Source: an uncultured bacterium (lineage in GTDB: Bacteria; Hydrothermota; Tepidihabitantia; SM23-42; JAOAFX01). From it: a stretch of DNA of 64,000 bases. The notes below the pieces were generated by a model. That model had not been told where the DNA came from. It saw only the letters and a program-made list of their open reading frames with translations, and ran no database searches. The stretch is from assembly GCA_964559225.1 (NCBI GenBank), contig CAZLGA010000002.1, forward strand, positions 11,837 to 75,836, written 5' to 3'. Positions 7,610 through 56,604 of the stretch are shown here, in pieces. A program made the translations under genes and the position numbers. Position 1 is the stretch's first letter. Every line of letters begins with the position of its first letter.

Positions 7610-7675
7610 TGGCACTAATTATAACCACCCCTTTAATCTTATTGACTGTCATATTATTCAACCGGTTACTATATA

Positions 7676-32590: not shown

Positions 32591-35500
32591 ATGTATATGC
32601 CAGACGATTTAAGGAAGACTATCATTGAAAGGCTTAAACCTCTTTTTGTTCAGTATGATTCAAGTTTTAAAGATTTTTTATCCATAGGTCAAAAAATTGA
32701 TGATGGGCTTCAAACAAATTCAGAAATTTTGAGTGGAATCCCTCATAGATTTAATAACCTCTCGGCAACTGTAGAACTCGTTCTTGAAGGTGTAGATGTA
32801 TTTGATACTGAAATCAAGAAGATGCACGAATTTCTGAAAAAAAGTATTGAGAATTTTAAAGAATCAGTGCTGATATCAGAAAAAATAAGTTCGGATCTTA
32901 ATAATATCGCAGAGGTTTTAAAGCAAATTCAACGCGGTATTAGGAATCTTGCAGAGATTATTTATAATATCAATTTTGTTTCCGAATCAATAGAGGTTGC
33001 CTCAAGAAATGCGGGAATAACTGCTTTTCATGCTGGCAGAGAGGGAAGGGGTTTTGAGGTAATTGCACGAGAGATGACAGTTCTGGCGCGCAATGTCCAG
33101 GGACCGACAAAAGTTATTCCTGTAGTATCTAACGAATTATTAAGAAATATTGATGAATTAAATCAAGATTTAAAAAAGATTCAAGATGTAATTACATATT
33201 TAAGAGAGATTGGTGAAAAGTTTTTGACTATCAATAACGAATTGCTCACCTTGATTCCGGAGCTTGAAAATTCTATAAGGGATATATCTAATAGTATATC
33301 TGTCCAGAAGGATTTGCATATAAATTTGCAAAAAGAAAGTGATAAGTTGTCTGAATATCTTGGTGATATTTATCGTATCATTAGAACAACCGCAATAACA
33401 GAAATGTTTTTAGGTGCATTTTTTCAGCACCTTAATAATTTAAAAAACAACTTGATGATTGCCGAAGACGAACAGAATTTTTATTATATCTTCAATAGCA
33501 TAAAACAGGTATTGGATAATGAACCAAAATTAGAGGGAGGACATGAGGAATTTTTCAATGTTGCATTAAAAAAGCTTGAAATGCATACTTCAGAAAGATT
33601 GATATTACAGTTTATTTCGGAAGCAAAACATCTCAACGAAGTAATAGGAGTAATATCTGAAAGAATAAAATCCTGGACAAAAACCCATAATTTTGCAAAT
33701 GAAGCATTGACCCGTGCCAAAGTTTTTTATAAGGATATTAGTGAATTACTTTGTTCTTTGAATGAAAAATCAAATAACTTAAAGAAACTTATTAATAAAG
33801 TAGAAAGGCCGGTTCAGGAATTAAAAAGGATATCTGAACGTTCGCGTCTTTTGGGTTTATATGCGGGTATTGAAAGTGCACGCAGTGGAAAATATGCTGA
33901 AGCACTCGGGGTTGTTACTAATGAAATTAAGACGCTTTCAATGAGGTCCTCTGAATTCGTTGGAAGCGTTGACTCGGTTGTTGGAGAGATATTGAAGAAT
34001 ATAAATTATCTCATTTCGTGTTTTTCCCGAACTACTGAAGATGTTGAATTGGGTGTAGCGTCTCTAACTATCTCAATGGAGGCAGTTGGTGAGAGCGGTA
34101 AAGTTCTTGATAACATTACAGCTCTTTCGCAAGAAATGTTGTCTTCTACGATGGAAATGGTAAATCAGTGTGGAATGCTTGGAGAACACTACCGGAATTT
34201 TGATACTGAATACCACAAAATAGGTGAATATTTTTCTTCCTATGGAACGACAATAAAATCAGGTGAAGAATTAACAAAGCAAATGAAGACAATTATAAAT
34301 GAGTTCAAAAAAGAGATTTCTCTGCTTACAACCAAGAGGAAGAAGATAGTATTGCGTGCGACTGAAGACCCAATAACACTTGACCCGGCAATAAAAACAG
34401 ATACTACAAGCCATCAGGTAATTGAACAAATATTTACCGGGCTCTATACCTTTGATCAGTTTAACCGATTGATTCCCGGTGTCGCATTATCATTCACAGT
34501 ATCTGAAGACGGAAAGGTTTGGGATTTCCATCTTAAAAAAGGGGTGAAATTTCATAATGGAAAAGAAGTGCAAGCAAAGGATATTTTGTTTTCACTGGAT
34601 AGGGTTAAAAAGGGTCCTAATGCAAATTTTATAGAGTATCTAAACGAGATGGTTGTTATTGACCCTTACCATATAAGGTTTATACTGAAATTTCCTTATA
34701 TTCCGTTTCTTGCAAACCTTGCCTGTGGTGTATGTGATATAGTTCCTTCAGACTTTAATCCAGATAAGCCGGTGGGTTGTGGTCCATATAGACTTGTTTC
34801 TTATGAAAAGAATAACGAAATTGTTCTTGAGGCTTTTGATGAATTCTATGACGGCAGACCACCGATTGATGAATGTGTGATTAAAACCGTCCGAGACGAC
34901 AGGGAAGCGATTGAATTATTTAAAAATGGTGAAATTTCTATCCTTGATTTAACCCCGGATATGCTACAAGAATTTTCGCAGGAAGGAATTTATACGGGTC
35001 CTGCCCTATCTACTCAGTATCTTGCTATAAACTTTTCTAAAAAAAATCCATTTTTTGATTTAAATGTGCGAAGAGCAATGAATTACGCTATTGATCGCGA
35101 CTATTATTGTCGCACATTGTTGAAAGGAAAAGCAATCCCCGCATTTGGAGTATATCCACCCGGACTTCCTGGATATAATAGAAATCTTCAGGTTTATCAA
35201 TATGATATCAAAAAAGCTCGGGATTTAATGCGCCAGGCAGGATTCGGGGGTGGAATTCCAGAGGAATTCGTCTTTGATGTCCGGGCAGGGGTTGATACAG
35301 TCAAAAGGGCAGAATTCATAAAAGATTCGTTTGCCAAGATTGGTATCCATCTACAGATAAATCCCCTGCCCTGGAAAGAGTTTCTTGATAAAACATATAG
35401 TGGAAATAGTGTGCTCAGTCTGAGGGGGTGGGTATCGGACAACGGTGACCCAGATAATTTTGTCTATACACTATTTCATTCAAAGAATTTTGGAGCGAGT

Positions 35501-35740
35501 GGCAACACCTCTTTTTATGCTAATGAAGAACTTGATAAAATGATTGAGTCAGCCAGGGCTGAACAGATTCCAAGACGAAGAATTGAACTATATCAAAAGA
35601 TAGAAAATTTTATTGTGGAGAATGCGCTCTGGGTTTTCATTTCCCACGGAGTCGATTGCTACGCCGTTCAAAAGAATATAAAGGGGTTTACAGTTGACCC
35701 TTTTGGTTTGGTCCGTTTTCGCAACCTATTTTGCTTATAA
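32591..35740 (+). CDS. Soluble chimeric receptor: two tandem methyl-accepting-chemotaxis-protein signalling modules (N-terminal ~590 aa) fused to a C-terminal ABC solute-binding-protein family-5 (OppA/DppA/NikA-type) domain.
   Basis: MCP conserved-domain motifs SESIEVASRNAGITAFHAGREGRGFEVIAREMTVLARN and SERSRLLGLYAGIESARSGKYAEALGVVTNEIKTLS. C-terminal EDPITLDPAIKTDTTSHQVIEQIFTGLYTFDQ...SEDGKVWDFHLKKGVKFHNGKEV is a textbook SBP_bac_5 N-lobe. No signal peptide or TM segment is evident. Confidence 0.75.
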   Translation: MYMPDDLRKTIIERLKPLFVQYDSSFKDFLSIGQKIDDGLQTNSEILSGIPHRFNNLSATVELVLEGVDVFDTEIKKMHEFLKKSIENFKESVLISEKISSDLNNIAEVLKQIQRGIRNLAEIIYNINFVSESIEVASRNAGITAFHAGREGRGFEVIAREMTVLARNVQGPTKVIPVVSNELLRNIDELNQDLKKIQDVITYLREIGEKFLTINNELLTLIPELENSIRDISNSISVQKDLHINLQKESDKLSEYLGDIYRIIRTTAITEMFLGAFFQHLNNLKNNLMIAEDEQNFYYIFNSIKQVLDNEPKLEGGHEEFFNVALKKLEMHTSERLILQFISEAKHLNEVIGVISERIKSWTKTHNFANEALTRAKVFYKDISELLCSLNEKSNNLKKLINKVERPVQELKRISERSRLLGLYAGIESARSGKYAEALGVVTNEIKTLSMRSSEFVGSVDSVVGEILKNINYLISCFSRTTEDVELGVASLTISMEAVGESGKVLDNITALSQEMLSSTMEMVNQCGMLGEHYRNFDTEYHKIGEYFSSYGTTIKSGEELTKQMKTIINEFKKEISLLTTKRKKIVLRATEDPITLDPAIKTDTTSHQVIEQIFTGLYTFDQFNRLIPGVALSFTVSEDGKVWDFHLKKGVKFHNGKEVQAKDILFSLDRVKKGPNANFIEYLNEMVVIDPYHIRFILKFPYIPFLANLACGVCDIVPSDFNPDKPVGCGPYRLVSYEKNNEIVLEAFDEFYDGRPPIDECVIKTVRDDREAIELFKNGEISILDLTPDMLQEFSQEGIYTGPALSTQYLAINFSKKNPFFDLNVRRAMNYAIDRDYYCRTLLKGKAIPAFGVYPPGLPGYNRNLQVYQYDIKKARDLMRQAGFGGGIPEEFVFDVRAGVDTVKRAEFIKDSFAKIGIHLQINPLPWKEFLDKTYSGNSVLSLRGWVSDNGDPDNFVYTLFHSKNFGASGNTSFYANEELDKMIESARAEQIPRRRIELYQKIENFIVENALWVFISHGVDCYAVQKNIKGFTVDPFGLVRFRNLFCL

Positions 35741-36159
35741 TTATGGATACATTGATAGTTTTTAAGGTTGCCGATGAATCAGTCGGCTTAGATATTAAGA
35801 AGGTGCGGGAGGTTACAGAATTATCTTCTTATGTTCCTGTACCTAAAACACCGGATTTTTTAACAGGACTGGCAAATATAAGGGGAGAGGTTGTGCCGGT
35901 CATTTCCTTACGCAAACGTCTTGGTCTTGCCGGCGAGGAGCTCTGTAATATATTAGTGGTTGTTGAAGAAGAAGATAGAATAGCTGGTTTGCGAATTGAC
36001 CATCTGCTCGGGACAAAAAAGATTGATGAAAGATTGATAAATAAGCATTCTGAATTGCTTTCTACGAAAAAAGAAAAGGATTTCTTCATTGGTGCTTATG
36101 AGACCGAAGAGAAACCGATTTTGATATTAAACCTTGCGCGAGTTTTTGCAAAGGAGTGA
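35731..36159 (+). CDS. cheW: CheW-like coupling protein.
   Basis: 142 aa. LIVFKVADESVGLDIKKVREV...IRGEVVPVISLRKRLGL. Overlaps the upstream stop. Confidence 0.85.
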   Translation: MLIIMDTLIVFKVADESVGLDIKKVREVTELSSYVPVPKTPDFLTGLANIRGEVVPVISLRKRLGLAGEELCNILVVVEEEDRIAGLRIDHLLGTKKIDERLINKHSELLSTKKEKDFFIGAYETEEKPILILNLARVFAKE

Positions 36160-36270: not shown

Positions 36271-36630
36271 ATGAGAATACTGGTGGTGGACGACGCCATG
36301 TTTATGCGTCGGATGCTAACCGATATTTTAGAAAAAGGTGGACATAGTGTTTGTGGGGAAGCATCAACGGGTAAAGAAGCGGTGGAACGATATAAAGAAT
36401 TGAAGCCTGATTTGGTTACTATGGACATTATTATGCCGGATATGAGCGGGATAGAAGCGGTTAAAGAAATAAAAAAGATTGATCCGAAGGCGAAGATTTT
36501 AATGGTATCAGCAATGGGTCAGCAGGCACTTGTGCTTGAAGCGGTTCAAGCAGGTGCAATAGACTATGTAGTAAAACCCTTTCAACCTTCAAGGGTTCTT
36601 GAGTCTATTGAACGGATTATGAAAAAATAA
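36271..36630 (+). CDS. cheY: CheY-like single-domain response regulator.
   Basis: 119 aa. MRILVVDDAMFMRRML...DIIMPDMSGIEA...AMGQQ. Confidence 0.88.
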   Translation: MRILVVDDAMFMRRMLTDILEKGGHSVCGEASTGKEAVERYKELKPDLVTMDIIMPDMSGIEAVKEIKKIDPKAKILMVSAMGQQALVLEAVQAGAIDYVVKPFQPSRVLESIERIMKK

Positions 36631-36647: not shown

Positions 36648-38156
36648 ATGGCTGAAGAATATTTATCCCTTTTTATCAGTGAGACTGAATCATATATAAA
36701 ACAACTTGAAAAGGAACTTTTGGTCCTTGAGAAGGATGGGAAAAACCGAAATTCAATACTTGAGGTTTTTAGAATTTTACACACAATTAAAGGGATGGCA
36801 CAGACAATGGGTTTTGATGAACTTGGTAATTTAGCACACTCAGTTGAAGACTTGCTCACCGAACCCAAAACAAAAGGGAAGATAGATGGAAAAACTGTGG
36901 AATTTCTCTTTATTATAGTTGATTACTTTTCTCAGTTTTTAAAATCAGTAAAAAATAATGTGGTTGCACCACCCGTAATTGAGTTATTGACAATTTGTGA
37001 AGACATTAAACAGGGAAAGGAAGTTACATTAAAGAAAGGTGCGGTTGAAGGTGAAGGATTTGGCGAGATCAGAGTAAAAATGTCAAAGATTGATAATCTA
37101 TTCAATCTTACGAATGAATTACTTATAATAAAATCCCGTCTTGTAAAATTGAGTTCGGAGATAAAAAATAGTGAACTACAAAATATTAGTGAAAATGCGT
37201 CAAGGTTAATATCCGCATTACAGGATGAAATGATGCGATTACGAATGCTTCCATTGTCAACAGTATTTGAATTTTTCCCACGCTGGCTTAGGGATGAGGC
37301 AAAAAAACAGGATAAAGAGGTTGAATTTGTAATAATTGGTGGTGAACTTGAGGTTGACCGTTCAATCATAGATATTCTTAAGGAACCCATTATGCATCTT
37401 TTACGAAATGCCCTTGATCATGGGATAGAGAAAAAGGGCAAAATAACTTTGAACGCAACGAGAGAAAAAGAAATCATTAGAATCAGCGTTTCCGATGATG
37501 GAAAAGGAATTGATTCCGAACAGATTAGAAGACTGATTGTTGAAAGGAATATCGTTGATTATAAAACTGCACAGGCATTGGGCGGTGATGAGTTGTATAA
37601 ATTTTTATTGAGACCCGATTTTTCAACAAAAAAGGATGTATCAAAGGTTTCGGGAAGGGGAATAGGACTTGATATAGTCAATTCTTTTGTTAAGGAATTG
37701 GGCGGCAGACTGGAGATAAAATCGGAGAAAGGGAAGGGCTCAACATTTATTATTGAACTACCCATCAGTCTCGCCGTGATACGTGCTCTTATTTTGAGCA
37801 TGGACAGCCAGCGTTATGCACTTCCGCTTAATTTAGTTCAGGAAACTTTTTATATTGATGATAATAATATCCAGACCGTTTGTAACCATGAACTTATTAA
37901 ACTTAGAAATAGTATTCTGCCTCTGGTTAGAATATCTGAAAAATTAAATTGCACAACAAAGTTAGGGAAAAAATCGGTTGTTGTTGTTAATTACGAAGGG
38001 AAAAAAAGAGGATTTATTGTTGATGAGATATTAAGTGAGGATGAAATTGTTGTTAAAAAAACAGACCGATTTTTGCCTTCTTCACTATATTCAGGCTGTT
38101 CAATTTATGGGGATGGCAAGCCTATATTAATCCTTGATCCGAGGGGGTTTGAATGA
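36648..38156 (+). CDS. cheA: CheA histidine kinase (Hpt-dimerisation-HATPase-CheW-like; no obvious P2).
   Basis: Hpt FRILHTIKGMAQTMGF. ATPase RNALDHGIE...GRGIGLDIV. C-terminal CheW-like domain. Confidence 0.88.
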   Translation: MAEEYLSLFISETESYIKQLEKELLVLEKDGKNRNSILEVFRILHTIKGMAQTMGFDELGNLAHSVEDLLTEPKTKGKIDGKTVEFLFIIVDYFSQFLKSVKNNVVAPPVIELLTICEDIKQGKEVTLKKGAVEGEGFGEIRVKMSKIDNLFNLTNELLIIKSRLVKLSSEIKNSELQNISENASRLISALQDEMMRLRMLPLSTVFEFFPRWLRDEAKKQDKEVEFVIIGGELEVDRSIIDILKEPIMHLLRNALDHGIEKKGKITLNATREKEIIRISVSDDGKGIDSEQIRRLIVERNIVDYKTAQALGGDELYKFLLRPDFSTKKDVSKVSGRGIGLDIVNSFVKELGGRLEIKSEKGKGSTFIIELPISLAVIRALILSMDSQRYALPLNLVQETFYIDDNNIQTVCNHELIKLRNSILPLVRISEKLNCTTKLGKKSVVVVNYEGKKRGFIVDEILSEDEIVVKKTDRFLPSSLYSGCSIYGDGKPILILDPRGFE

Positions 38157-38764
38157 TTGATGCAAAAAATCTTACCGTAAAACAGATTGATGCTCTCACC
38201 GAAGTCGCTAATATTGGAGGTGGGCATGCAGCCACATCATTATCCCAGTTACTTGGTAAAAAAGTAATGATTCGTGTTCCAAAACTTTATACGGGACAAC
38301 TTGAAGAAGTGATATTAAAGATTGCTGACCCCAATGATGTTGTTGCATCAGTTCTATTATATTTCCTTGGTGATTTGACGGGGAGAACTCTCCTTATTTA
38401 TCCTTATGAAGATGCCCAGGAACTAACAAGGTTATTGATGCCAGAAGGACACGAAAGCACAATTGAAATCCAGGAATCACTACTTAAGGAAGTTTCAAAT
38501 ATATTGTCCTGTGCCTATATGAACGCCCTGGGCGAATTACTTGGACTTTTGATTCTCCCTTCAGTTCCCGGGATGATAATTGATATGATTGGTGCGGTTC
38601 TCTCCAGTGTCATTGTTGAATTCGGCAATGAGAAAGACTTTATTTTCTGCATTGAGACTCAATTTGATTTTGGAGATTTCAACAAGCCGTTATCAGCCTA
38701 TTTTCTCTTGCTACCTGATAATTCAAGTTTAGAAGTTATGTTGAAAAAACTAAATTTAGTATAA
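38153..38764 (+). CDS. cheC: CheC-family CheY-P phosphatase (CheC/CheX/FliY family).
   Basis: Both D/S-x3-E-x2-N-x22-P active-site motifs are present: D-ALT-E-VA-N-(22 aa)-P and S-LLK-E-VS-N-(22 aa)-P. Confidence 0.8.
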   Translation: MIDAKNLTVKQIDALTEVANIGGGHAATSLSQLLGKKVMIRVPKLYTGQLEEVILKIADPNDVVASVLLYFLGDLTGRTLLIYPYEDAQELTRLLMPEGHESTIEIQESLLKEVSNILSCAYMNALGELLGLLILPSVPGMIIDMIGAVLSSVIVEFGNEKDFIFCIETQFDFGDFNKPLSAYFLLLPDNSSLEVMLKKLNLV

Positions 38765-38765: not shown

Positions 38766-41162
38766 ATGATTTCCCCAGAAGAATATAAGGTATTGAAAAG
38801 TTTTGCAGAAAGAATCCCGGCTAATGACCCAGGTGCACATAACAATCTGGCAGTAGTGTATTATAATAAAGGGCTCTATGAGGAAGCAATTCAGGAATTG
38901 GAAAAGGCACTAAGCATTGACCCGAATTTTACGCTTGCAAGAAACAATTTAGAGATAATTTTAAAAAAATCTGGAAAACTTGATAACAAGGTAAAGGAAC
39001 TTGCACACCATATTGATGTTGAGCCATTTGATGAAATAAAAACCCTTGAACTTGCTGATACCTACCGGAAATTGAATCGGTATTCTCAGGCAATAATCTA
39101 CTACCGTAAGGTCCTTGATTTTAACCCAGGTTCTTACGAAGCACATTTTGGTCTTGGTATTACGCTTAGACACCTGGGCAAATATGATGATGCCCTTGAG
39201 GAAATAAAAAAGAGTCTTGAAATAAAGATTTCGCCAGAAGGTTATCGCCTGCTTGGTGAGATATATTTTAACAAAGGCATCATCGACCTTGCGATCAAAA
39301 ATTTCGAGGAAGCAATAATGCTTGATCCAGCTTCGGCTGAAGCTCATTTCTTTTTAGGCTTTGCTATGGGTGAGAAGGGAATGCACAAAGAAGGAAGGGA
39401 AGAAATTAAAAAGGCAATTCAGTTGAATCCCGCACTCGCCCAATTTGAACCAAATCTGCCAATTGAATTAAAAGAACACAAGGGCTACCTTGATTTTTTA
39501 AAGGAACAGCTGGGAGTTCCCAAAAGTTCAGTAAACGAGTTTCAGGTTCATAATAATCTGGGTATTACATACCGGAATAAGGGTTTGTTTACTGAGGCAA
39601 AAAGAGAATTTGAAGAGGCTTTGAAATTTAAAGATGATGATGCTGAATTGTTTGCTTCTTTAGGTGAGGTAAATCTTTTTTTAAACAAACTGGATGATGC
39701 TTATAACTATTTTTCCCGCTGTCTTGCACTTGATTCACTGTCGGTAAGAGGGCTCAATGGTTTGGGCGTTGTCTGTTTAAAGAAAAATAATTATGGAGAG
39801 GCTAAAACTTATTTTGAGAAAGTGCTCGCAGTTGATAAAACTTATATACAGGGTCTTGCGAATCTTGGGCTTGCTAATTATTTATTAAATCAGATTGAAG
39901 AAGCGGTGAAGATTTTTAATGCCGCTATAGAACAAGGTAGTGAAGATGCAAAATACAATTTAGGTATGTATTTTTATAAAAAGGGTGATTATGAACAGGT
40001 ATTAAAACTCTTTAAAGATGAATCTGTTGATAGCAAGTTTTTCCGCGGTCTTGTTTATGCCGAGTTAGGAAGAGATGATGAGGCAGTAACTTCATTTAAA
40101 AATGTCATCAATGTTCTGCCGAGTTATGCAGGTGCATACTATAACTTGGGCTTTTTACTGATGAAAATGGGACAATTTGAAGACGGTTTATCAAATATCC
40201 GAAAGGGTATGGAGATAGAACCGAACTACGAAAAAGAAAAATATCGTATTGCAATTGCACCCGAATTATATGAATATGGCTTATACTATACACCGTTCCG
40301 AATAGAAGAAAAATTTGAAGAAAAAATTATTGAAGAAGTTGAAGAGTTTTTCCCGACTCTGGAAGTTCCCACACCTCAGGATTATATACAGGAAGCAGAA
40401 AATTTGTTGAAAAAGAATGAATTTGATAAGGCGTTAAATATGATTGATGAAGCACTTAAACTCGTTCCGGAAATGAGTGAACCAGTTATACTGAAATCTA
40501 AGATTTTGTTTCAGGCTGGTAATATTGATGATGCACTTAATCAACTTGAAAGTTTTACAAAAAAACACCCTGATGACATTGATTCTATTTTGACACTTGC
40601 GAATATGCTAAAGACACTTGGCAAATTAAAAGAGGCCAAAGAGAAATATCGTAATCTTTTGCTAATACAAAAAGATAATTTTGACTGGCTCAAAGAACTG
40701 GCTTCATTAAGTTTTGCCTTGAATGAGTTGGAAGATGCTTTGATTATTTATAATCAGTTATATGAGAAAAATCCTGACGACATTTCAGTTAATTTAGGAC
40801 TATTGAGTATACACCTGAAGAAAAAGGATTTGGAAAAGGCGGCGAAATATATTGATATGCTTGAGAAAGACAAACCTGAAATTTATGACTTTTACGCTTC
40901 AGCAGGATTGTATTATCTTGAAAAGAATGAACGAAGTAAGGCAAAGAATTATTTTGAACGGGCAGTAGAACTTGAGCCTTCAAAGCCAATTCCTTACTAT
41001 AACCTCGGCATTATTGCTGTTCAGGAGGGTAAATTCGACGAAGCATGCAGTTACTGGAAAAAGGCAATGCTTTTAAGTCCGGACGAAGACCTGGCAAGTA
41101 AAATCACCCATTGTTTGAATATAACTATGGAAATGATGGAATTCTTAAAAAGTAGTTTATAG
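38766..41162 (+). CDS. Large tetratricopeptide-repeat (TPR) protein, 798 aa, inside the che-like operon.
   Basis: Many 34-aa TPR units (..AHNNLAVVYYNKGLYEEAIQELEKALSIDPN..; ..AYYNLGFLLMKMGQFEDGL..). Confidence 0.8.
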   Translation: MISPEEYKVLKSFAERIPANDPGAHNNLAVVYYNKGLYEEAIQELEKALSIDPNFTLARNNLEIILKKSGKLDNKVKELAHHIDVEPFDEIKTLELADTYRKLNRYSQAIIYYRKVLDFNPGSYEAHFGLGITLRHLGKYDDALEEIKKSLEIKISPEGYRLLGEIYFNKGIIDLAIKNFEEAIMLDPASAEAHFFLGFAMGEKGMHKEGREEIKKAIQLNPALAQFEPNLPIELKEHKGYLDFLKEQLGVPKSSVNEFQVHNNLGITYRNKGLFTEAKREFEEALKFKDDDAELFASLGEVNLFLNKLDDAYNYFSRCLALDSLSVRGLNGLGVVCLKKNNYGEAKTYFEKVLAVDKTYIQGLANLGLANYLLNQIEEAVKIFNAAIEQGSEDAKYNLGMYFYKKGDYEQVLKLFKDESVDSKFFRGLVYAELGRDDEAVTSFKNVINVLPSYAGAYYNLGFLLMKMGQFEDGLSNIRKGMEIEPNYEKEKYRIAIAPELYEYGLYYTPFRIEEKFEEKIIEEVEEFFPTLEVPTPQDYIQEAENLLKKNEFDKALNMIDEALKLVPEMSEPVILKSKILFQAGNIDDALNQLESFTKKHPDDIDSILTLANMLKTLGKLKEAKEKYRNLLLIQKDNFDWLKELASLSFALNELEDALIIYNQLYEKNPDDISVNLGLLSIHLKKKDLEKAAKYIDMLEKDKPEIYDFYASAGLYYLEKNERSKAKNYFERAVELEPSKPIPYYNLGIIAVQEGKFDEACSYWKKAMLLSPDEDLASKITHCLNITMEMMEFLKSSL

Positions 41163-41184: not shown

Positions 41185-42252
41185 ATGGCAGATGAACTTG
41201 CAATGGACTCCAAAGCACTCATATTTGCTACACTGGCAGATGTCTATTTAACTTCGGGTATGGTTGATGAAGCAATATCAATTTTAAAAGATGGGTTGAG
41301 TAGAAATCCCAATTATACACTCGCTAAGATAATCCTGGGAAGGGCATATTATCTTAAAGGCGATATAGAACAAGCACGGAAAATTCTTGAAGAAATATAT
41401 GAACAGGCAAAAGAAAGTGAAAACGAAAATCTTTATTTAGGATATATATATAACAAACTTGGTGATTATGAAAAGGCAATCCAATTTTATGAGGCAACAT
41501 TAAAGATAAATCCTGAAAATAAAGAGGCAAAGCAAGAGCTTGAATTGTTAAAACCAAAGCCACAGGTTGTTGAGGTTGAGAAAGGGGTAGTGCATGAAAG
41601 ACCTTTTGAGACTATTACCCCTGAAATGATTGCAGTCCCGAAAGAGAAAATTACTAAACCTGAACTGCCGATAGAGGAAGTTATTGAGAAGATAGAACCT
41701 GAAAGAGAAAAGATAACTGAACCAGAACCGGAAATTAAACCTGAAGAAGTTTCAAAGTCTGAACCGGTTCAGGTGGTTCCTGTCCAGAAGCCTGTGGAGG
41801 TATCGAGGAAAGAAGAGGAGATAGAACTTATACCCGTTTTACCGGAAATAGGACTTGAGCCTGTGGTTGAAGAGAAAGAAATTGAAAAAGTAAGTCCGCT
41901 TGATGCCTTGAACGAACCTATGAAAAGATTGACTGATATAAAGTCTGTAAAGGGTGCATTTATATTATCACGCGATGGGTTACTCATTCAGAGTTATTAT
42001 CAAGGCAGGGATGATATAGAAGAAATTTGTGCTCTTCTTGCCGGCGTATACAATGATGCCGACAATGCCTTTAAATTTTTGCAAACGGGTTGTTTAGAAA
42101 AGTTTATTATTGAAAAAAGTGATGAGACAATCTGTGTAATTACAGCAGGTGAATCACTTTTGTGCATAATAACAAAGCCTGAAGCAAAACCAGGACTTGT
42201 ATTTGTTTATGCACGCAAAATTATTGAAGAAATTAGAAAAATACTGGGGTAA
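41185..42252 (+). CDS. TPR domain, then a Pro/Glu/Lys-rich linker, then a Roadblock/LC7 (MglB-like) domain protein.
   Basis: N-terminal TPRs. Low-complexity linker KPELPIEEVIEKIEPEREKITEPEPEIKPEE. C-terminal LTDIKSVKGAFILSRDGLLIQSYYQG is a Roadblock fold signature. Confidence 0.7.
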   Translation: MADELAMDSKALIFATLADVYLTSGMVDEAISILKDGLSRNPNYTLAKIILGRAYYLKGDIEQARKILEEIYEQAKESENENLYLGYIYNKLGDYEKAIQFYEATLKINPENKEAKQELELLKPKPQVVEVEKGVVHERPFETITPEMIAVPKEKITKPELPIEEVIEKIEPEREKITEPEPEIKPEEVSKSEPVQVVPVQKPVEVSRKEEEIELIPVLPEIGLEPVVEEKEIEKVSPLDALNEPMKRLTDIKSVKGAFILSRDGLLIQSYYQGRDDIEEICALLAGVYNDADNAFKFLQTGCLEKFIIEKSDETICVITAGESLLCIITKPEAKPGLVFVYARKIIEEIRKILG

Positions 42253-42255
42253 GTT

Positions 42256-42555
42256 ATGGATTTATCTCAAATTATAAAAATTCCGAGGGTTTTAGGCGTG
42301 GGTCTGGCAACTTATGATGGTTTCATAATAGATAGCCAGCTCGTTCATGGCTTTGATGCAGAAAAATTTGGAGCAATGTCAGCAAAGATTGTGAATCAAA
42401 TCAAAAGAAATTTTGGGAAGGAAAATCCGTCTATAATCCTTTATACAGATAAAATCATATTTCTTGCAAAGGCAAAGAACGAAGGTGTCTTTTTTGTCGT
42501 TGCAGATAAGGAAGCAAACTTAGGTCTTATCAAAATAAAATTTGAAAAGATGTAG
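42256..42555 (+). CDS. Stand-alone Roadblock/LC7 (MglB-like) domain protein.
   Basis: 99 aa. IPRVLGVGLATYDGFIIDSQLVHGFDAEKFGAMSAKIV. Confidence 0.7.
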   Translation: MDLSQIIKIPRVLGVGLATYDGFIIDSQLVHGFDAEKFGAMSAKIVNQIKRNFGKENPSIILYTDKIIFLAKAKNEGVFFVVADKEANLGLIKIKFEKM

Positions 42556-42596: not shown

Positions 42597-43304
42597 ATGA
42601 AAACAATATTGGTTCGGTTGTTAATTATGATACTCATATTTGGCTGTCGCCAGAAGACGAAAACAAATACACCCTGGCATGAAATAGCACGCAGACAGAT
42701 GGTGAAAGAACAGATTGTTGCGCGAGGGATTATTGACTCAAATGTAATAAATGTAATGCTCAAGGTTGAAAGACACAAATTCGTTCCCAAGGAATACGAA
42801 AGATATGCATATACAGATGGACCTTTACCTATCGGTGAGGGGCAGACGATTTCCCAGCCGTATATTGTGGCGTTAATGACCCAAGTTTTAGAACTCAAAG
42901 GAAGCGAGAGGGTCTTAGAAATTGGCACTGGCTCAGGATACCAGGCAGCAATTCTATCACTTCTGGTAAAAGAGGTTTATACGATTGAAATAATTCCTGC
43001 GCTTGCAAATTCAGCACAGCAGCGCCTTGAAAGTCTTGGTTATAAAAATGTATATGTAAAATGTGGAGATGGATTTCTGGGGTGGCCAGAAAAGGCACCA
43101 TTTGATGGAATAATAATAACCTGCGCAGCACCAAGGGTTCCTGAACCATTGATAGAACAACTTGCAGAGGGTGGTAGACTGGTAATGCCCGAAGGTGAAG
43201 ATTGGCAGATGCTCGTCTTATACAAAAAAATTGGTGGTGGATTACAAAAGAAGGAACTTATTCCTGTCTTGTTTGTGCCTATGAAAGGGAAGATAAGAGA
43301 GTAA
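42597..43304 (+). CDS. pcm: Protein-L-isoaspartate O-methyltransferase with an N-terminal lipoprotein-type signal.
   Basis: GEGQTISQPYIVALMT...VLEIGTGSGYQAAIL. Signal MKTILVRLLIMILIFGC. Confidence 0.88.
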   Translation: MKTILVRLLIMILIFGCRQKTKTNTPWHEIARRQMVKEQIVARGIIDSNVINVMLKVERHKFVPKEYERYAYTDGPLPIGEGQTISQPYIVALMTQVLELKGSERVLEIGTGSGYQAAILSLLVKEVYTIEIIPALANSAQQRLESLGYKNVYVKCGDGFLGWPEKAPFDGIIITCAAPRVPEPLIEQLAEGGRLVMPEGEDWQMLVLYKKIGGGLQKKELIPVLFVPMKGKIRE

Positions 43305-48389: not shown

Positions 48390-49094
48390 TTATCTATTTA
48401 ATTTCTTGTGGCATAACCACCAGTCAAAACATTCATATTCACCAATCTTTGCTTTTTCAATTCGTTCTTTGGCAGTTTTGACATCCTTTGCTGGTGGAAC
48501 AATCACATGGTCTTTTACAATTTCATTATTAGGCCAGTTTGCCGGCATTGCCACACCGTATTTATCTGAGATTTGCATTGCTTCAACAGCCCTCAGAATT
48601 TCATCTATATTTCTACCGAGTTCTTGAGGATAATAAAATATTATTCTAATTTTCCCCTTATCGTCAACCACAAAGACCGCTCGAACAGTATTGGTCCCCT
48701 TGCCTGGATGAATAAGACCAAGAGTTTCTGCTACTGCGCCGGTATCAGCAATGATGGGGAATTGTATTTCAACCCCTAACTTTTCTTTTATCCATTCTTC
48801 CCATTTGATGTGTGAAAAGACCTGATCAACACTGAGACCTATCAGTTCGCAATTCAATGCCTTGAATTTCTCGTACCTTTTTTGGAATGCAACAAATTCA
48901 GTGGTGCAGACTGGTGTAAAGTCCGCAGGATGGCTGAATAAAACAAACCATTTACCTGCGAACGCTTTTGGTAGCTCCAGAACACCATGTGTGGTCTGGA
49001 CTTTCATCTCTGGGAAATCATCTCCCAGAAGCGGCATCCTTTTTTCGGTTATTTTGTCCATATTACCTCCTTTTTCAATAAAATTACTCTTCAA
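48390..49094 (-). CDS. Peroxiredoxin (AhpC/TSA family, Prx6-like 1-Cys type). The true start is probably an internal Met (MDKITEK or MPLLGDD).
   Basis: FTPVCTTEF peroxidatic-Cys motif. Confidence 0.85.
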
Positions 49095-49449
49095 TTTTCT
49101 TTATTATTTGGTTGGTTTTTACTGTTAATTTTTTCTTTCCAGAAATATTACAGTATGCTTCAAAAGTGATAGTGTCATCTATTTTTGCCTCCGGAATTAT
49201 GTAAATGTATCTTTGAATCGTGTTATCTATCTGTTGAACGCTTTTCTGTTCTATTATCTGGCTATCGTTAAGTTCAATTTCGAGCTTATTGATATAATGC
49301 TTTTGTGCATCGCGAACCGGATGTTTAATTGAAACTTGTAAAATCTTGCTGGTTGTATCAAATTCAGCAACAATTTCACTCGGTGGATGGGCATAGGTGA
49401 TATTAGCTATTACTAATGTCATTATTGTAATAAGAATCAAGTGCTTCAT
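49084..49449 (-). CDS. Hypothetical secreted protein (signal peptide).
   Basis: [20 protein letters not shown]. Strong RBS aaggaggcaaaaATG. Confidence 0.5.
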
Positions 49450-49459
49450 TTTTGCCTCC

Positions 49460-49639
49460 TTAAAAATATGTCAGATAAATGACAATTAATGCGTGTATCG
49501 TTGCGAGAAGAATAGCGATAAGGGCGATGAATCTATGTATCTTTAAGGGCGCTTTAATGATTTTTAAACCTGTAAGAACTGCCAATAACACGCATATATA
49601 AGTAACAATGCCTAAAGGTTTTATTAAATCACCAATCAT
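49460..49639 (-). CDS. Unannotated 59-aa two-helix small membrane protein, just below the ORF-track length cutoff.
   Basis: Manual translation: MIGDLIKPLGIVTYICVLLAVLTGLKIIKAPLKIHRFIALIAILLATIHALIVIYLTYF*. It ends 10 nt before the next gene's RBS. Confidence 0.35.
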   Translation of the reverse strand: MIGDLIKPLGIVTYICVLLAVLTGLKIIKAPLKIHRFIALIAILLATIHALIVIYLTYF

Positions 49640-49698
49640 TGTAATTTCCCATTATTATCGTCCGAATGAATTTGGAGGCTACAATTAAAAAAGTTCTT

Positions 49699-49726
49699 CT
49701 GTAGCGTCCAACTTTAGATGGACGAG
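49699..49726. repeat. TGTAGC hairpin element copy (TGTAGCGTCCAACTTTAGATGGACG). It matches the reverse complement of the second half of the 32447 element at 24 of 25 positions.
   Basis: Seen directly. Confidence 0.55.
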
Positions 49727-49738
49727 TATTTTTTAACA

Positions 49739-50242
49739 CTACTCTCCCCAGACAATCGTTCCTTTATTTGCAAGATTATATACCTCTGCCTCAAGAATTG
49801 TCTGATGCCTCTTTTCATCCTCAGCCAGTTGTTCAAATAACTTTTTACCTTCCCGGTCTTTTATACTTTTTGCAATCTTCAAATATCTGGACATCGCCAT
49901 TTTTTCCGCCTTTATCCCGATATTCAAAACATCAATAATCTCATCCTTATTTGGTTCAAAATCTCCTGATACCTCGGGCTTTATATTTTTTGATGCCGGG
50001 GCAAAGCGCGAAAGGTCTATGGCTGTTTTACCCTTACGGGCTTCAATAATGTTATGGATATATTCGTAATGCCTTGCCTCAAATCCAGCAAGTTCTAAGA
50101 ATAGCTTTTTTCCTGCTTCACTCTGTGCCTTTCCTGCGGCATCAGTATAGAAATCCTGTGCCTTTTTTTCCGCTATTAGGGCACTTGTAAGTAGTCTGTT
50201 TATACTCGTTACTTTCCTCTTTGTTGTTTTTTTCTTTTTCAT
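49739..50242 (-). CDS. Ferritin-like / rubrerythrin-family diiron protein, with no rubredoxin domain.
   Basis: E...EARHYEY and E..EKRH paired motifs. 167 aa. Lys-rich N-terminus. Confidence 0.65.
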   Translation of the reverse strand: MKKKKTTKRKVTSINRLLTSALIAEKKAQDFYTDAAGKAQSEAGKKLFLELAGFEARHYEYIHNIIEARKGKTAIDLSRFAPASKNIKPEVSGDFEPNKDEIIDVLNIGIKAEKMAMSRYLKIAKSIKDREGKKLFEQLAEDEKRHQTILEAEVYNLANKGTIVWGE

Positions 50243-50243
50243 T

Positions 50244-50702
50244 TTACCTCCTTCCGCCTAAAAATGTTAATATTTCTTCAAAATCGGGTAATTGGGGAAT
50301 ATCATAGGTCTTCATCCAGACAACAAACTGATTTTCATCGATTATGATATTCGCCCGTTCTGAGAAACCTTCTTTTTCCCTGAATATTCCAATTTTTTGA
50401 GCATATTCACCATGGGGCCAGAAATCAGACAAAAGCCGGGTCTCTTTGACACCCATATCTTTTGCCCAGGCATGCTTTGAAGGAACCGGGTCAACACTGA
50501 TACCAAATGCTACAGTGTTTAATCTATCAAACTCGGTCTTGTATTGTTCCAGTGCCTTCATTTGTTTAGTACAGACACCGGTCCAGGCAAGGGGGTGGAA
50601 GGATAAAAGAATCTTTTTGCCTTTGAAATCAGCAAGTTTAACCTCCTGATTATGCTGGTCTTTTAGAACAAATTCAGGAATTTTATCACCAACTTTCACC
50701 AT
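50244..50702 (-). CDS. Thiol peroxidase / peroxiredoxin (Bcp/PrxQ-like redoxin).
   Basis: HPLAWTGVCTKQM. Confidence 0.8.
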   Translation of the reverse strand: MVKVGDKIPEFVLKDQHNQEVKLADFKGKKILLSFHPLAWTGVCTKQMKALEQYKTEFDRLNTVAFGISVDPVPSKHAWAKDMGVKETRLLSDFWPHGEYAQKIGIFREKEGFSERANIIIDENQFVVWMKTYDIPQLPDFEEILTFLGGRR

Positions 50703-51575
50703 TTAGCCTCCTTTATTCTCTTCAAAAAATTTTCTAACAAAATCCAATCGCTTTTCCGTATTTCTATAAATTATCGGGATTTTATCATCTTTGTAAACAT
50801 TGAGGTTCTCTTCAAATGTTGTCCTTTTTGGATTTTTGTATATTATTCCAAGTGGCATCGGGTCTTCCTCACAGGCTTTTTTAAATGCCCCATAGCGGTC
50901 AAGTGGGTTATAGGAGTTATCAAGATAATAAGTGTGTTCTCTGAACCAGGAATATGTATTAAATTTATTGAAGGTAACACAGGGTTGTAATACATCAATA
51001 AGTGCATATCCTTTATGCAAGATTGCCTGTTTTATGATTTCTTTTGTTTTCTCAACATCACCAATGAAAGTTCGTGCGACGAAGGATGCATCCAGAGCAA
51101 TCGCTATGGCGATAGGATTGAATGGTGTCACGAAGACACCATCTACCTGGACAGGTGTTTTAAATCCCATTTGGCTCGTTGGTGATGCCTGCCCTTTTGT
51201 CAATCCATACACCATATTATTGTGGACGATATTTGTAATATCTGGATTCCGTCTTATTGTATGTATGAAATGATTTCCGCCCTCTGCGTATGTACATCCA
51301 TCACCACTCACAGCAATAACAGTTAATGCCGGATTCACTGATTTGATTGCAGTTGCAGCTGAAAGGTATCTTCCGTGCAATCCATTAAAGAGATTTGTCT
51401 TTAGATAATGGGGTAGTTTTGCAGCCTGACCGATACCAGAAACGAGCACGAGTTTTGATGGTTCAATATCCAGTTCACTTAATGCTTCTTTTATCGTATT
51501 CAATATACCAAAATTACCGCAACCAGGACACCAGGCAATATCAATATCGTCAAGGGTAAATCTGTTTTTTTTCAT
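50703..51575 (-). CDS. korB: 2-oxoacid:ferredoxin oxidoreductase beta subunit (TPP-binding).
   Basis: [11 protein letters not shown]-terminal motif and the TPP-binding GDG region. Confidence 0.85.
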
Positions 51576-51580
51576 AATTA

Positions 51581-51991
51581 TTAAGCCTCCCTTATTTCTA
51601 TCATATTACCTTCAGGATCCTCAATAAAATATACCTTGCGCTCATTTCGTTTAATGGTGATGATTTTTACTTGTTTTTTTCTTAGATAATTTATGAATTG
51701 TTCCCGGTCGCTTACTGTTAATCCAAAATGGTGTAATCCGTAATGATTTTTTCTTTTCTCTACTCTATTTTTGTAATGCGGTTCAAATATTTCTAAAATA
51801 AGTTTTTCGGATTTCAGCCGGTAGAAACAGCAGGTAGAATTTGTTCTAAAAAGTTTTTTGACGATGTCGGTCTGGAGTCTTTCTCCTGAGATAAGTTTAA
51901 ATCCCAAAATATTTCTGTAAAATTTTATCAAACGCTCGGCGTTTTTCGTGAATATTCCGATATGGTCACAGGAATAAATGCTTTTATTCAT
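51581..51991 (-). CDS. Glyoxalase / VOC-family protein inserted between korA and korB.
   Basis: 136 aa. [24 protein letters not shown]...GLHHFGLTV. Confidence 0.65.
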
Positions 51992-53715
51992 ATTAACTCC
52001 TCTATTCCCTTTGTAATTTCTTCTACATAAAATGGTAATCCGTTATACTTTAAGATTAAATCTTTAATATCCACTCCAAAATTCAATTTCAAGAATTTTG
52101 CCATTTGTCCGGTCGCATTATTTTCAACCATACATAATTTTTTTGCATTGCTTAAATACTGATATGTAACTGGATGGATAGGATGGATCTGGCTGAAATA
52201 TAGCATTGCTACATCATCTGAATTTATTCTTTCGATCGCTTCTTTTACAATCTCATAATTTGAGCCCCAGCACATCACGAGTAGTTTATAATTTTTCGAC
52301 CCGATGAATTCAGGTTCAACCAAATCAGCGCTTATCACCCTATATTTATTCAACAATTTATTCATCATCTTAGTGCGTAGACTGAGGTCTTCAGAAATGT
52401 GTCCTTCTTCATCATGGTGATGGCAGTCCGCTATGACCAGGCCTTTACCGTAACCTGGTATTCCCCGTGGCGATATTCCAGATTCCGTAAGTATATACCG
52501 CTTATAATCCTCTGTTGTTTCAATTATATAATTTTCAATCTTTATATCCTCTACATTGAAAGGGATGACACTATATGAAGAATCAATAAAATATTGGTCA
52601 GTAAGTATGAAGACAGGAATCTGATATTTATCTGCAAGATTGAATGCCTTTTGAGTCAGGTAAAAACCCTGTTCAAAGTTGCCTGGAGCAAAGATGATGC
52701 GGGGAAATTCACCATGTCCGGCATACAAAGCGAGCTGGAGGTCTGCCTGCTCTGTTCTTGTTGGTAATCCTGTAGCAGGTCCTGGTCGCTGGGCAAGGTG
52801 AATTACCATTGGGGTTTCTTGTATTGCTGCCAAACTCAATCCTTCGGTCATCAAATCAAAACCTCCACCCGAGGTGGTGACCAAGGCACGGGCACCTGTG
52901 TAGGAACCACCAATGCCCATATTCATTGCTGATATTTCATCTTCAGCCTGTTCGGTTATTATGTCTAAATCTTTTCCAACCTGAGCAAGATATGTCCAGA
53001 CACCACTTGAGGGTGTCATTGGATAGGCAGCAATGAATTTTACTCCGCCTGCTATCGCACCTAATGCAATCGCTGCTGAACCGTCAATAATTTTCTCTTT
53101 AAACACATCCTTGCTCGATGGAGAGGCAAAATTTATCAATTTTGGTCCTTTGACCTCTTCAGCCTTTTCAAATCCCAATTTTGCTGCCTGAATATTTTTT
53201 TCTACTATTGTCCCACCTTTAGCAACAAAATGAGTTTTGATAAGGTTTGCAAGGTTATCAAAGGAAATATTCATTAGACCAACAAGGAGACCGACTGCAA
53301 TGGTATTAGCAAAAAGCGGATTTCCAAGCTCCTTTGCCATTTTCAGATAAGGAATATAATAATATGAATTGTAACCACTGATTGGAAATTCACTCAAAAT
53401 CAATGTGTCTTTAGAGATATTATCTTTATTGTGTTCCAATGCCTTATCTGTCAGTGGAATTAAAACATCAATTTTTTTAAGAGGTGCCCGTGTTCTCTTA
53501 TTACTAATTCTTATTTGCACTGAATTCATACCCCCACGAATACGGGACATAAATTCAGTCCAGATGAATGCATAATAACCAGATGACTGGGCTACTTTTA
53601 ATGTAATATCACCAACAGCATTTATGCCCTGTCCAGCCTCACCGGAAATAACTATTGAGATGTCAGAGTTCGTCATAATATCAGAACTTCTTGAACTTGC
53701 TATTCGGTGCACCAC
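51988..53715 (-). CDS. korA: 2-oxoacid:ferredoxin oxidoreductase alpha subunit (fused gamma-alpha type).
   Basis: 575 aa. The N-terminal gamma-like domain (ISGEAGQGINAVG) is followed by the pyruvate-flavodoxin/ferredoxin oxidoreductase core. Confidence 0.85.
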   Translation of the reverse strand: MVHRIASSRSSDIMTNSDISIVISGEAGQGINAVGDITLKVAQSSGYYAFIWTEFMSRIRGGMNSVQIRISNKRTRAPLKKIDVLIPLTDKALEHNKDNISKDTLILSEFPISGYNSYYYIPYLKMAKELGNPLFANTIAVGLLVGLMNISFDNLANLIKTHFVAKGGTIVEKNIQAAKLGFEKAEEVKGPKLINFASPSSKDVFKEKIIDGSAAIALGAIAGGVKFIAAYPMTPSSGVWTYLAQVGKDLDIITEQAEDEISAMNMGIGGSYTGARALVTTSGGGFDLMTEGLSLAAIQETPMVIHLAQRPGPATGLPTRTEQADLQLALYAGHGEFPRIIFAPGNFEQGFYLTQKAFNLADKYQIPVFILTDQYFIDSSYSVIPFNVEDIKIENYIIETTEDYKRYILTESGISPRGIPGYGKGLVIADCHHHDEEGHISEDLSLRTKMMNKLLNKYRVISADLVEPEFIGSKNYKLLVMCWGSNYEIVKEAIERINSDDVAMLYFSQIHPIHPVTYQYLSNAKKLCMVENNATGQMAKFLKLNFGVDIKDLILKYNGLPFYVEEITKGIEELI

Positions 53716-54184
53716 ATACCGGACAGTATTCAGGCGGTTTGCCGATGTGTGTAAATCCGCAGATAGGGCAGATGTAGATTTCTTTAATATCTATGTCTTT
53801 GCCTTTTTCTGCAGTTGCCTTTGCGTCAGCATACATTCTCATATGGATTTTTTCTGCTTCCAGAGCGTAATGGGTTGATTGCTCGGCGCCTTTTTCGTTT
53901 TGAAATTTGGCAGTATTATTAAATACCGGATACATCTCCTCTACTTCGTAGGTCTCGCCATCAATACCGGTCTGGAGATTATCGGGTGTCTTTTTTATTA
54001 TTCCTAAATTGCGTGCATGATTTGTTGCATGGACCTGCTCGGCATAGGCAATTGCTTTGAAAAGGCGCGCTATATTCGTTAGTCCTTCTTTTTCAGCAAT
54101 TTCGCTGAAGATTAAATATTTCATATGTGCCATTGACTCTCCTGCAAATGCCTCAAGCAATGCTTTTTCGGTCATTTTCTTCAT
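53681..54184 (-). CDS. rbr: Rubrerythrin (diiron domain + C-terminal rubredoxin-like Cys4).
   Basis: C-terminal CPICGFTH...CPVCGAPNSKF. N-terminal ferritin-like helices with E..H pairs. Confidence 0.88.
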   Translation of the reverse strand: MKKMTEKALLEAFAGESMAHMKYLIFSEIAEKEGLTNIARLFKAIAYAEQVHATNHARNLGIIKKTPDNLQTGIDGETYEVEEMYPVFNNTAKFQNEKGAEQSTHYALEAEKIHMRMYADAKATAEKGKDIDIKEIYICPICGFTHIGKPPEYCPVCGAPNSKFKKF

Positions 54185-54266
54185 TTTAGCCTCCTTTCAC
54201 CCTCACCTTAATCCTCTCCCTTCAAAGAATAGGGCAAGGGTCCAAGATTGACTTCTACTCTATGAA

Positions 54267-54293
54267 TTGTAGCATCCAGATTTATCTGGATGC
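54267..54293. repeat. TGTAGC hairpin element copy (TGTAGCATCCAGAtttaTCTGGATGC), 24/25 identical to the first half of the 32447 element. A partial CGTCCAG unit follows at ~54303.
   Basis: Seen directly; perfect palindrome. Confidence 0.6.
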
Positions 54294-54368
54294 TTAAATA
54301 GTTCGTCCAGTTAAAACTGAACACTGCATTAATTGTTCTGCTGATTAATGCGGAAAACTGCAGAGAAT

Positions 54369-54785: not shown

Positions 54786-54909
54786 TTATTGTAGCATCCA
54801 TTCCTGATTTTCATCAACATTACCACATATTTCGCACTTAAATATTTGACCGACACTGGTCACATTTGCCATATTACCTCCTTGAGATTATCTATTTATA
54901 TGCATCATT

Positions 54910-56136: not shown

Positions 56137-56141
56137 TTTTT

Positions 56142-56576: not shown

Positions 56577-56604
56577 TTTTCACCTTGAGGCTATACTCCA
56601 TTTA

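Follow-up and report, generated by a model that had tools for sequence, protein, structure and literature searches.

A co-inherited Roadblock gene pair in a WOR-3 chemosensory operon: a candidate adaptor between Che signaling and an MglA/MglB-type switch

Roadblock proteins have an ancient partnership with small GTPases, seen in MglB of bacteria as well as in Ragulator of eukaryotes. Here we analyze two adjacent Roadblock genes in a 64-kb window, which is the whole stretch of DNA studied (64,000 nucleotides of contig CAZLGA010000002.1, from an uncultured bacterium of candidate division WOR-3; coordinates are those of the window): one encodes a 355-aa fusion of tetratricopeptide repeats (TPR) with a Roadblock domain, and the other a 99-aa stand-alone Roadblock protein. 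The closest functional analogue of this pair would be MglC of Myxococcus, a Roadblock paralog without GTPase-activating protein (GAP) activity of its own, which bridges RomR and MglB downstream of the Frz pathway and is required for Frz-induced reversals (PMC7949163, PMC10329633). MglB itself uses its C-terminal region to bind MglA (PMC7949163). MglB homologs occur near PATAN genes, and some MglA proteins are coupled to two MglB-like genes, one of which alone co-evolves with MglA; nearly half of the bacterial MglB-family genes are "orphans" with no assigned function (PMC4316618). For PATAN regulators, binding to the motor of type IV pili has been reported (bioRxiv 10.1101/2021.06.11.447907).

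In Ragulator, two different Roadblock chains, LAMTOR2 and LAMTOR3 (p14 and MP1), form an obligate heterodimer that serves as a scaffold for small GTPases, and in the conservons of Streptomyces a Roadblock protein (CvnB) is encoded together with a histidine kinase (CvnA), CvnC and a GTPase (CvnD). Polar hubs of the FimV/HubP type, in which TPR motifs occur together with a long, acidic stretch of low complexity, serve to place components of chemosensory systems and pili; they are membrane-anchored, carry a LysM domain and have no Roadblock domain, and no homology to them was detected. The Che-Roadblock-MglA/MglB arrangement is known in principle, from Frz/MglABC, but in the searchable literature we found only general precedents, and no direct description, for a TPR-Roadblock protein, a Roadblock-bearing Che operon or motility in WOR-3, nor any description of an accessory Roadblock pair. 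We hold with moderate confidence that the pair is an accessory, MglC-like adaptor linking a Che pathway to an MglA/MglB-type switch, and that the WOR-3 form is a reduced one; in one WOR-3 lineage, the pair and a 798-aa TPR protein would then make up the output or adaptor end of a cytoplasmic chemosensory operon with eight genes.

The two genes are in the same frame, with the junction TAA-GTT-ATG and the next ATG at 42256:

41185..42252 (+): TPR·Roadblock fusion gene, 355 aa; the stop codon TAA ends at 42252
41185..41547 (+): TPR module at the N-terminus of the fusion, with roughly three repeats in residues 1-121 (Pfam TPR families)
41548..41895 (+): acidic linker rich in Pro, Glu, Lys and Val, residues 122-237, 116 aa (ortholog comparison)
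41614..41646 (+): conserved linker motif ITPEMIAVPKE
41836..41862 (+): conserved linker motif VLPEIGLEP
41896..42252 (+): Roadblock/LC7 domain of the fusion, residues 238-355 plus the stop codon, 118 aa (PF03259, AlphaFold2, Foldseek)
42256..42555 (+): stand-alone Roadblock protein "Robl2", 99 aa (AlphaFold2, Foldseek, family profile)

The original prediction, made from the DNA letters, described both genes correctly: the open reading frames (ORFs) are as given, the fusion has the expected Pfam domains, and the Pro/Glu/Lys-rich linker peptide that was quoted is present. Many Pfam TPR families match residues 13-120 of the fusion protein, and its TPR module contains the conserved motif ALIFATLADVYL.SGMVDEAISILKDGL. 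The linker consists of 15% P, 26% E, 12% K and 16% V (69% together), with a net charge of -13, and its tail has a predicted local distance difference test score (pLDDT) below 50 in AlphaFold2. The Robl_LC7 family PF03259 matches residues 247-330 at 41.0 bits (cutoff 23). The model of the C-terminal 131 aa (pLDDT 83.9) has the same fold as the 99-aa Roadblock, and in Foldseek it is closest to Asgard Roadblocks (E 2.5e-10); 3kye, LAMTOR and MglB (template modeling score, TM, 0.78) come next.

The same PF03259 check, which had been proposed for the pair, succeeded for the fusion but not for the 99-aa protein, which scores only 19.1 bits; because this value is below the cutoff, the fold of the 99-aa protein was tested separately. 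AlphaFold2, run on an alignment of 27 sequences, gives a model with pLDDT 92.4 and the topology a-b-b-a-b-b-b-a, which ends past a short alpha3 helix. Its top Foldseek matches in the PDB are all Roadblock proteins (Streptomyces 3kye, LAMTOR2/3, Asgard Roadblocks and MglB; TM 0.72-0.87). Orthologs of the 99-aa protein do pass PF03259: a 100-aa protein from the nearest outgroup of the WOR-3 clade scores 28.7 bits, 113-aa proteins score 36-39 bits, and the clusters P0014 and P0024 carry the domain. An alignment of the fusion Roadblock profile with that of the 99-aa family spans 96 columns, with 24% identity (E 8.5e-5). By AlphaFold2 and Foldseek, both proteins thus have the Roadblock fold.

The pair closes an operon of eight genes on the same strand and with tight spacing, in the order double-headed soluble chemoreceptor (MCP), CheW, CheY, CheA, CheC, 798-aa TPR protein, TPR·Roadblock and Roadblock. 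The Che neighborhood to which the fusion had been proposed to connect is thus in the same operon, directly upstream:

32591..35740 (+): soluble chemoreceptor, 1049 aa, operon gene 1; two tandem MCP signaling domains and a C-terminal SBP_bac_5 domain
35731..36159 (+): CheW (Pfam)
36271..36630 (+): CheY, single-domain (Pfam)
36648..38156 (+): CheA histidine kinase with Hpt, dimerization, HATPase and CheW domains, without P2 (Pfam)
38153..38764 (+): CheC-type CheY-P phosphatase (Pfam CheC, 62.9 bits; NCBIfam CheC_Thtogales, 157.8 bits, below its cutoff)
38766..41162 (+): all-TPR protein, 798 aa, directly upstream of the pair (Pfam TPR)

CheR, CheB and CheD are absent from the operon. The MCPsignal domains of the receptor score 44.4 and 54.3 bits (cutoff 34.6), its two halves are 20% identical, and prediction of transmembrane helices in the receptor gave none. 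DosM, a receptor that spans and stabilizes the cytoplasmic F9 array of Vibrio cholerae (PMC7534058), is likewise soluble and has two signaling domains; the window receptor is double-headed in this DosM-like way, with an ABC-type binding protein (the solute-binding domain SBP_bac_5) as its cytoplasmic sensor. Because of this resemblance, the chemosensory system here is probably a cytoplasmic array. The receptor is 48-84% identical among all WOR-3 loci and has a homolog at the more distant locus L026 (E 9e-122). CheY is 92-99% identical across loci L002-L018, compared with 54-86% for CheA and 48-84% for the receptor, a constraint of unusual strength for a single-domain response regulator. The 798-aa TPR protein always accompanies the pair and is 54-91% identical in all WOR-3 loci.

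All eight genes occur in the same order in 14 of 14 WOR-3 loci with enough sequence, and the two Roadblock genes are adjacent in each of them, as the original prediction required of close relatives; three further WOR-3 loci end at contig edges, so that the cassette is only partly visible. The 99-aa protein has 28 homolog clusters (51-100% identity, 99-103 aa), all named ones from candidate division WOR-3, and when GTDB species were scanned with one genome each, 12 of them had it, the named ones again all WOR-3. A search with the Roadblock half of the fusion alone returned ortholog fragments only. Depending on the locus, the Roadblock genes share 4 nt or have a gap of 2-4 nt between them, suggesting translational coupling, while the downstream flank of the pair differs (genes for protein-L-isoaspartate O-methyltransferase, PCMT; DUF7508; or DsrE/TusA). 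The parts of the fusion protein are conserved to very different degrees: the TPR module has a constant length of 121 aa and a mean identity of 79%, and the Roadblock domain is also constant in length, with a mean identity of 75%, whereas the linker ranges from 61 to 246 aa at 38% identity, with a net charge of -4 to -38 and, in some orthologs, internal repeats. Clade-wide, the linker stays acidic and rich in P, E, K, V and A, and it keeps the short motifs ITPEMVAVPKE and V/I-LPEIGLEP. The ratio of nonsynonymous to synonymous substitution rates (dN/dS) against orthologs is 0.03-0.12 for both Roadblock genes, and 0.035-0.057 for the Roadblock domain of the fusion. Both genes are under strong purifying selection.

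The original prediction had noted the lack of an MglA partner in cis, and our searches bear this out. Real ORFs in all six frames of the 64-kb window contain no Walker-A motif GxxxxGK[ST], and tblastn with MglA found nothing at E<=1 in 342 kb comprising the window, the WOR-3 loci and the outgroup locus L023. A search with MglA of the type found in Zixibacteria gave more than 8000 matches, and among the 120 listed there was no hit with a WOR-3 name. The NCBIfam MglB model does not match either window protein at E<=0.1, and PDB sequence searches with both proteins did not reach MglB at E<=1. In L023, the outgroup locus nearest to the WOR-3 clade, the genes are arranged as CheY-CheA-CheC-TPR801-TPR·Robl-Robl100.

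To place the pair among more distant relatives, we compared the Roadblock region of the fusion, in an exhaustive profile search, with 1.84 billion representative proteins. The 302 matches comprise about 17 orthologous clusters at E<1e-28 and, after a gap, a remainder beginning at E about 1e-12. A hidden Markov model (HMM) of the WOR-3 TPR module also matches 17 of these second-tier, non-orthologous TPR-linker-Roadblock clusters, so that TPR-acidic linker-Roadblock is a wider homologous architecture. Three other recurrent domain combinations have a related Roadblock domain at their end: response regulators in which it follows a REC domain (P0151, P0176); fusions of an ExeA-like P-loop AAA ATPase to Roadblock (P0141, P0147, P0152, P0154, P0163, P0164, P0167); and proteins with a conserved acidic N-terminus, DWDF..F.L.DD, an acidic linker and Roadblock (P0143, P0169, P0182).

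Five independent contexts outside WOR-3 share a larger gene cluster, in the order CheW-CheY-CheA-CheC, a TPR protein of 885-901 aa, PATAN(DUF4388)·TPR, TPR·Roadblock, a Roadblock protein of 111-115 aa and a third one of 154-240 aa. The contexts differ in what comes next:

L019, Ca. Edwardsbacteria: 198-aa small GTPase
L021/L022, Zixibacteria-like: 197-aa small GTPase
L025: 398-aa gene, then a 197-aa small GTPase
L024, GCA_030619885.1: DnaA-like ATPase; no MglA within 9.7 kb downstream
L026: 511-aa gene, then the contig end

The 197-aa neighbor GTPase is MglA (E 3.8e-82 against M. xanthus MglA, with the TVPGQ motif present), and the GTPase of L025 matches the MglA of L021 at 2e-87. The third Roadblock protein of L021 (182 aa) scores 48 bits with the NCBIfam MglB model NF052242, a value below the model cutoff. 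The window has CheY, CheA, CheC and a large TPR protein directly upstream of the pair, as this Che-PATAN-Roadblock-MglBA cluster (defined here) does, and over its full length its 798-aa TPR protein is a homolog of the TPR proteins of 893-896 aa (27-32% identity over about 800 aa). The difference is that PATAN(DUF4388)-TPR, MglB-like and MglA genes are absent from the window and from all WOR-3 loci, where PCMT or unrelated genes follow the pair. The WOR-3 operon is thus a reduced form, without PATAN, MglB and MglA in cis. Family HMMs separate the two Roadblock genes of the pair: that of the 99-aa family gives 41-45 bits for the 113-aa second-gene Roadblocks and at most 30 for the fusions, while that of the fusion family gives 42-56 bits for fusions and 25-38 for second-gene Roadblocks; neither matches the MglB-like third-gene proteins. 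By these scores, each window gene is the positional ortholog of its counterpart in the larger clusters, the 99-aa gene corresponding to the second gene of 111-115 aa.

The larger clusters also include a conserved DnaA/Hda-like AAA+ ATPase (Bac_DnaA, 392-477 aa), with the Mgl genes on one side and a further PATAN·TPR gene on the other, which is an unexpected component of a chemosensory cluster:

L021 12629..14062: DnaA/Hda-like ATPase
L024 11629..12807: DnaA/Hda-like ATPase
L019 9025..10371: DnaA/Hda-like ATPase

To survey the neighbors of the pair more widely, we scanned metagenomes with the second-gene Roadblock, which yielded 53 loci annotated by tblastn with reference proteins; the pair is present at 24 loci, the earlier ones included. 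As a pattern, an MglB-like gene, MglA or both lie directly 3' of the pair at 19 of the 21 loci that have 700 bp or more of downstream sequence, all but L060 and L023 (19 of 20 when the outgroup locus L023 is set aside), and MglA is present at 10 of the 15 with at least 3.5 kb. The loci fall into two subtypes, one Che-linked and the other without CheA within 7-9 kb upstream; in the latter, MglA begins 30-48 nt past the pair. At L039 (8681..11583), a locus of the subtype without CheA, an MglB-like gene is followed directly by pilB (MshEN+T2SSE), pilT and pilC, and separate ORFs encode the two parts of the fusion, TPR (287 aa) and Roadblock (149 aa). The MglA of this locus has 408 aa, about 210 of which form an additional C-terminal half. 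Near L024, too, there is a PilB-like gene. Three forms can be distinguished: PATAN/pair/MglA/MglB/pilBTC; Che/bigTPR/PATAN/pair/MglB(/MglA); and, in WOR-3, Che/bigTPR/pair. Because the two Roadblock genes are the only ones common to all three, we consider the pair an autonomous module between varying inputs (Che, PATAN) and an MglA/MglB output. The survey thus indicates that the ancestral function of the pair is a GTPase-related one. The small-GTPase link of the original prediction gains strong comparative support in this way, in that orthologous pairs precede MglB-like or MglA genes, but the comparison also shifts the role that was proposed, since the pair looks more like an accessory adaptor than like a platform with GAP or guanine nucleotide exchange factor (GEF) activity.

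We propose the following mechanism for this adaptor. The two Roadblock domains would associate, in the simplest case as a LAMTOR2/3-like heterodimer. The TPR module, with its constant length of 121 aa, would dock this platform to the large TPR protein, to the Che array or to CheY-P, with the variable acidic linker as a flexible tether. Heterodimer and tethering are inferred from strict co-occurrence, the 4-nt overlaps or 2-4-nt gaps, and precedent. The platform would relay the phosphorylation state of CheA-CheY-CheC to an MglA/MglB-type polarity switch, which in turn would position a surface machine, most plausibly type IV pili. In WOR-3, PATAN, MglB and MglA may act from elsewhere in the genome, or may have been lost.

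As proposed here for the pair, MglC is a small protein of Roadblock fold that is not the GAP, acts together with MglB/MglA and joins a phosphorelay component to the switch; the relatives of the pair directly adjoin MglB-like and MglA genes and lie downstream of Che. Unlike the pair, MglC is a homodimer with neither a TPR fusion nor a paired second Roadblock gene; there is no detectable sequence relationship between them, and in structure MglC (7ct3) matches the 99-aa model poorly (TM 0.56) and is not in the top 50 for the fusion domain. The WOR-3 pair, moreover, has no nearby MglB or MglA, and we saw no RomR-like gene in the 64-kb window. LAMTOR2 and LAMTOR3 are the best structural matches to the 99-aa model (TM 0.83-0.87), and orthologs of the second gene give weak Pfam matches to MAPKK1_Int and LAMTOR5; these proteins are, however, eukaryotic, anchored to the membrane via LAMTOR1, and have no TPR or chemosensory link, and the heterodimer that is obligate in Ragulator is for the window pair a proposed one. 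The conservons share with the window a Roadblock gene encoded with a kinase, and 3kye is among the top fold matches, but here the kinase is a CheA with CheY and CheC, and a second Roadblock gene, with a TPR fusion, accompanies the stand-alone one. A conservon-like reading was ruled out, as the operon has no DUF742/CvnC and no GTPase.

Several points weigh against an adaptor that feeds an MglA/MglB switch. Neither the 64-kb window nor the 342 kb of WOR-3 loci contain MglA, MglB-like, PATAN or pilus genes, and L023 likewise lacks MglA, MglB and PATAN; as the nearest outgroup shares this state, the operon lost them long ago and has stably remained without them, which is just as compatible with a function independent of a GTPase. 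On this evidence, a GTPase partner in this organism is a hypothetical one. The heterodimer is suggested by linkage, the pilus connection comes from one inspected locus (L039) and the PilB-like gene near L024, and the surveyed loci are phylogenetically non-independent, so that the counts of 19 of 21 and 10 of 15 describe a pattern and carry no statistic. These observations could be taken to mean that the 798-aa TPR protein, the TPR·Roadblock protein and the 99-aa Roadblock form a GTPase-independent hub, which organizes or positions the receptor array or binds CheY-P for a non-GTPase target, the ancestral MglA/MglB link having been lost. A soluble, double-headed receptor like the array-scaffolding DosM (PMC7534058) would suit such a hub; the pair is under strong purifying selection even though MglA, MglB and PATAN are absent at all WOR-3 loci and at L023; the 92-99% identity of CheY suggests several constrained interaction surfaces; and Roadblock-related outputs of response regulators do exist, in the REC-Roadblock proteins P0151 and P0176 and in NitrOD3 (PMC5847659). 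Yet outside this lineage the pair almost always adjoins MglB-like or MglA genes, absence in cis does not equal absence from the genome, and 328 of 749 MglB-family genes overall are "orphans" (PMC4316618). We regard the hub as less likely than the adaptor, but as a serious alternative. We consider unlikely its stricter form, in which the MglA/MglB switch has been lost from the WOR-3 genome altogether and the pair with the 798-aa TPR protein is a GTPase-independent output platform of the cytoplasmic array that reads CheY-P directly; if true, it would place Roadblock proteins without a small GTPase in a bacterial phosphorelay.

The pair could instead be a heterodimer that itself serves as GAP/GEF platform for an MglA or other Ras-like GTPase encoded elsewhere, in place of MglB. 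MglB and Ragulator are precedents for Roadblock dimers in this role, the fold is that of MglB (Foldseek TM 0.75-0.79 for both models), orthologs of the pair share operons with mglA, and in WOR-3 the cassette no longer has a separate MglB-like gene, whose role the pair could have assumed. That same gene argues the other way: a distinct MglB-like gene accompanies the pair in the larger clusters, so that the pair was not ancestrally the GAP. Because of this gene, and because the window proteins match no MglB model or sequence and have no mglA in cis, we conclude that the pair is not MglB itself. The MglB chains among the PDB matches have about 123-145 aa; being far shorter than these and than the MglB-like genes, the 99-aa protein leaves no room for the C-terminal MglA-binding region (PMC7949163), and at 118 aa the fusion domain also falls short of them, neither having the longer C-terminal region used for MglA binding. 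We judge a GAP/GEF role to be improbable. Most doubtful of all is that the two genes are independent, forming homodimers with separate roles or decaying as remnants of a larger cluster. The modules are separable, as the split ORFs of L039 illustrate, and most characterized bacterial Roadblock proteins (MglB, MglC) are homodimeric (PMC7949163), but the genes co-occur at every locus examined with a 4-nt overlap or a 2-4 nt gap, the two Roadblock lineages are kept distinct from WOR-3 to Zixibacteria, and decay is excluded by dN/dS values of 0.03-0.12. We thus retain the interpretation of the pair as a co-inherited accessory adaptor.

Directly downstream of the pair lies a side neighbor:

42597..43304 (+): PCMT, protein-L-isoaspartate O-methyltransferase, 41 nt 3' of the pair

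Its N-terminus is hydrophobic and lipobox-like (MKTILVRLLIMILIFGC). PCMT was considered as a component of the module and rejected: most WOR-3 loci have it after the pair, but L002, L003/L018 and L023 lack it. In a promoter scan, promoter-like sites were no commoner than in shuffled sequence, and no terminator-like sites were found on the + strand between 39767 and 43500, which weakly supports co-transcription through PCMT.

The rest of the window encodes two-component systems, redox genes of the Hdr/FlpD type, oxidative-stress genes and proteins with sorting domains of the type IX secretion system (T9SS); flagellar, pilus, PATAN and GTPase genes were not found there. These features are:

6188..15384 (+): duplicated redox module with two paralogous 1017-aa HdrA-like proteins (Pyr_redox_2 + 4Fe-4S), an FlpD/MvhD-like gene after each HdrA-like gene, and Fer4 and CCG-domain (HdrC/B-like) genes ahead
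16948..18207 (-), 23016..23813 (+), 58411..59835 (-) and 59839..63840 (-): four proteins with T9SS C-terminal sorting domains (Por_Secre_tail or CHU_C), one of them a 1333-aa gingipain-like C25 peptidase
21398..22705 (+): 435-aa ORF between an M50 site-2 protease and a T9SS-tailed protein, with no Pfam match at E<=0.001
48390..57995 (-): dense oxidative-stress cluster, with pyruvate:ferredoxin oxidoreductase genes in between, for peroxiredoxins, two rubrerythrins, desulfoferrodoxin, a ferritin/Dps-like protein, a regulator of the Fur family, a hemerythrin-PAS protein and a protein like ferredoxin-thioredoxin reductase

The four sorting domains indicate that this WOR-3 bacterium has a type IX secretion system.

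Our analysis places what appeared to be an orphan pair in an evolutionary series: a PATAN/Roadblock×3/MglA module beside a pilus motor, the same module in a Che cluster, and the WOR-3 form with the Che genes and the pair but with no GTPase in cis. If the adaptor interpretation is correct, the TPR·Roadblock protein and its short partner would represent an undescribed accessory Roadblock family that wires chemosensory pathways to polarity switches in several uncultured phyla, and the WOR-3 form would be a natural experiment on whether Roadblock platforms can do without their GTPase.

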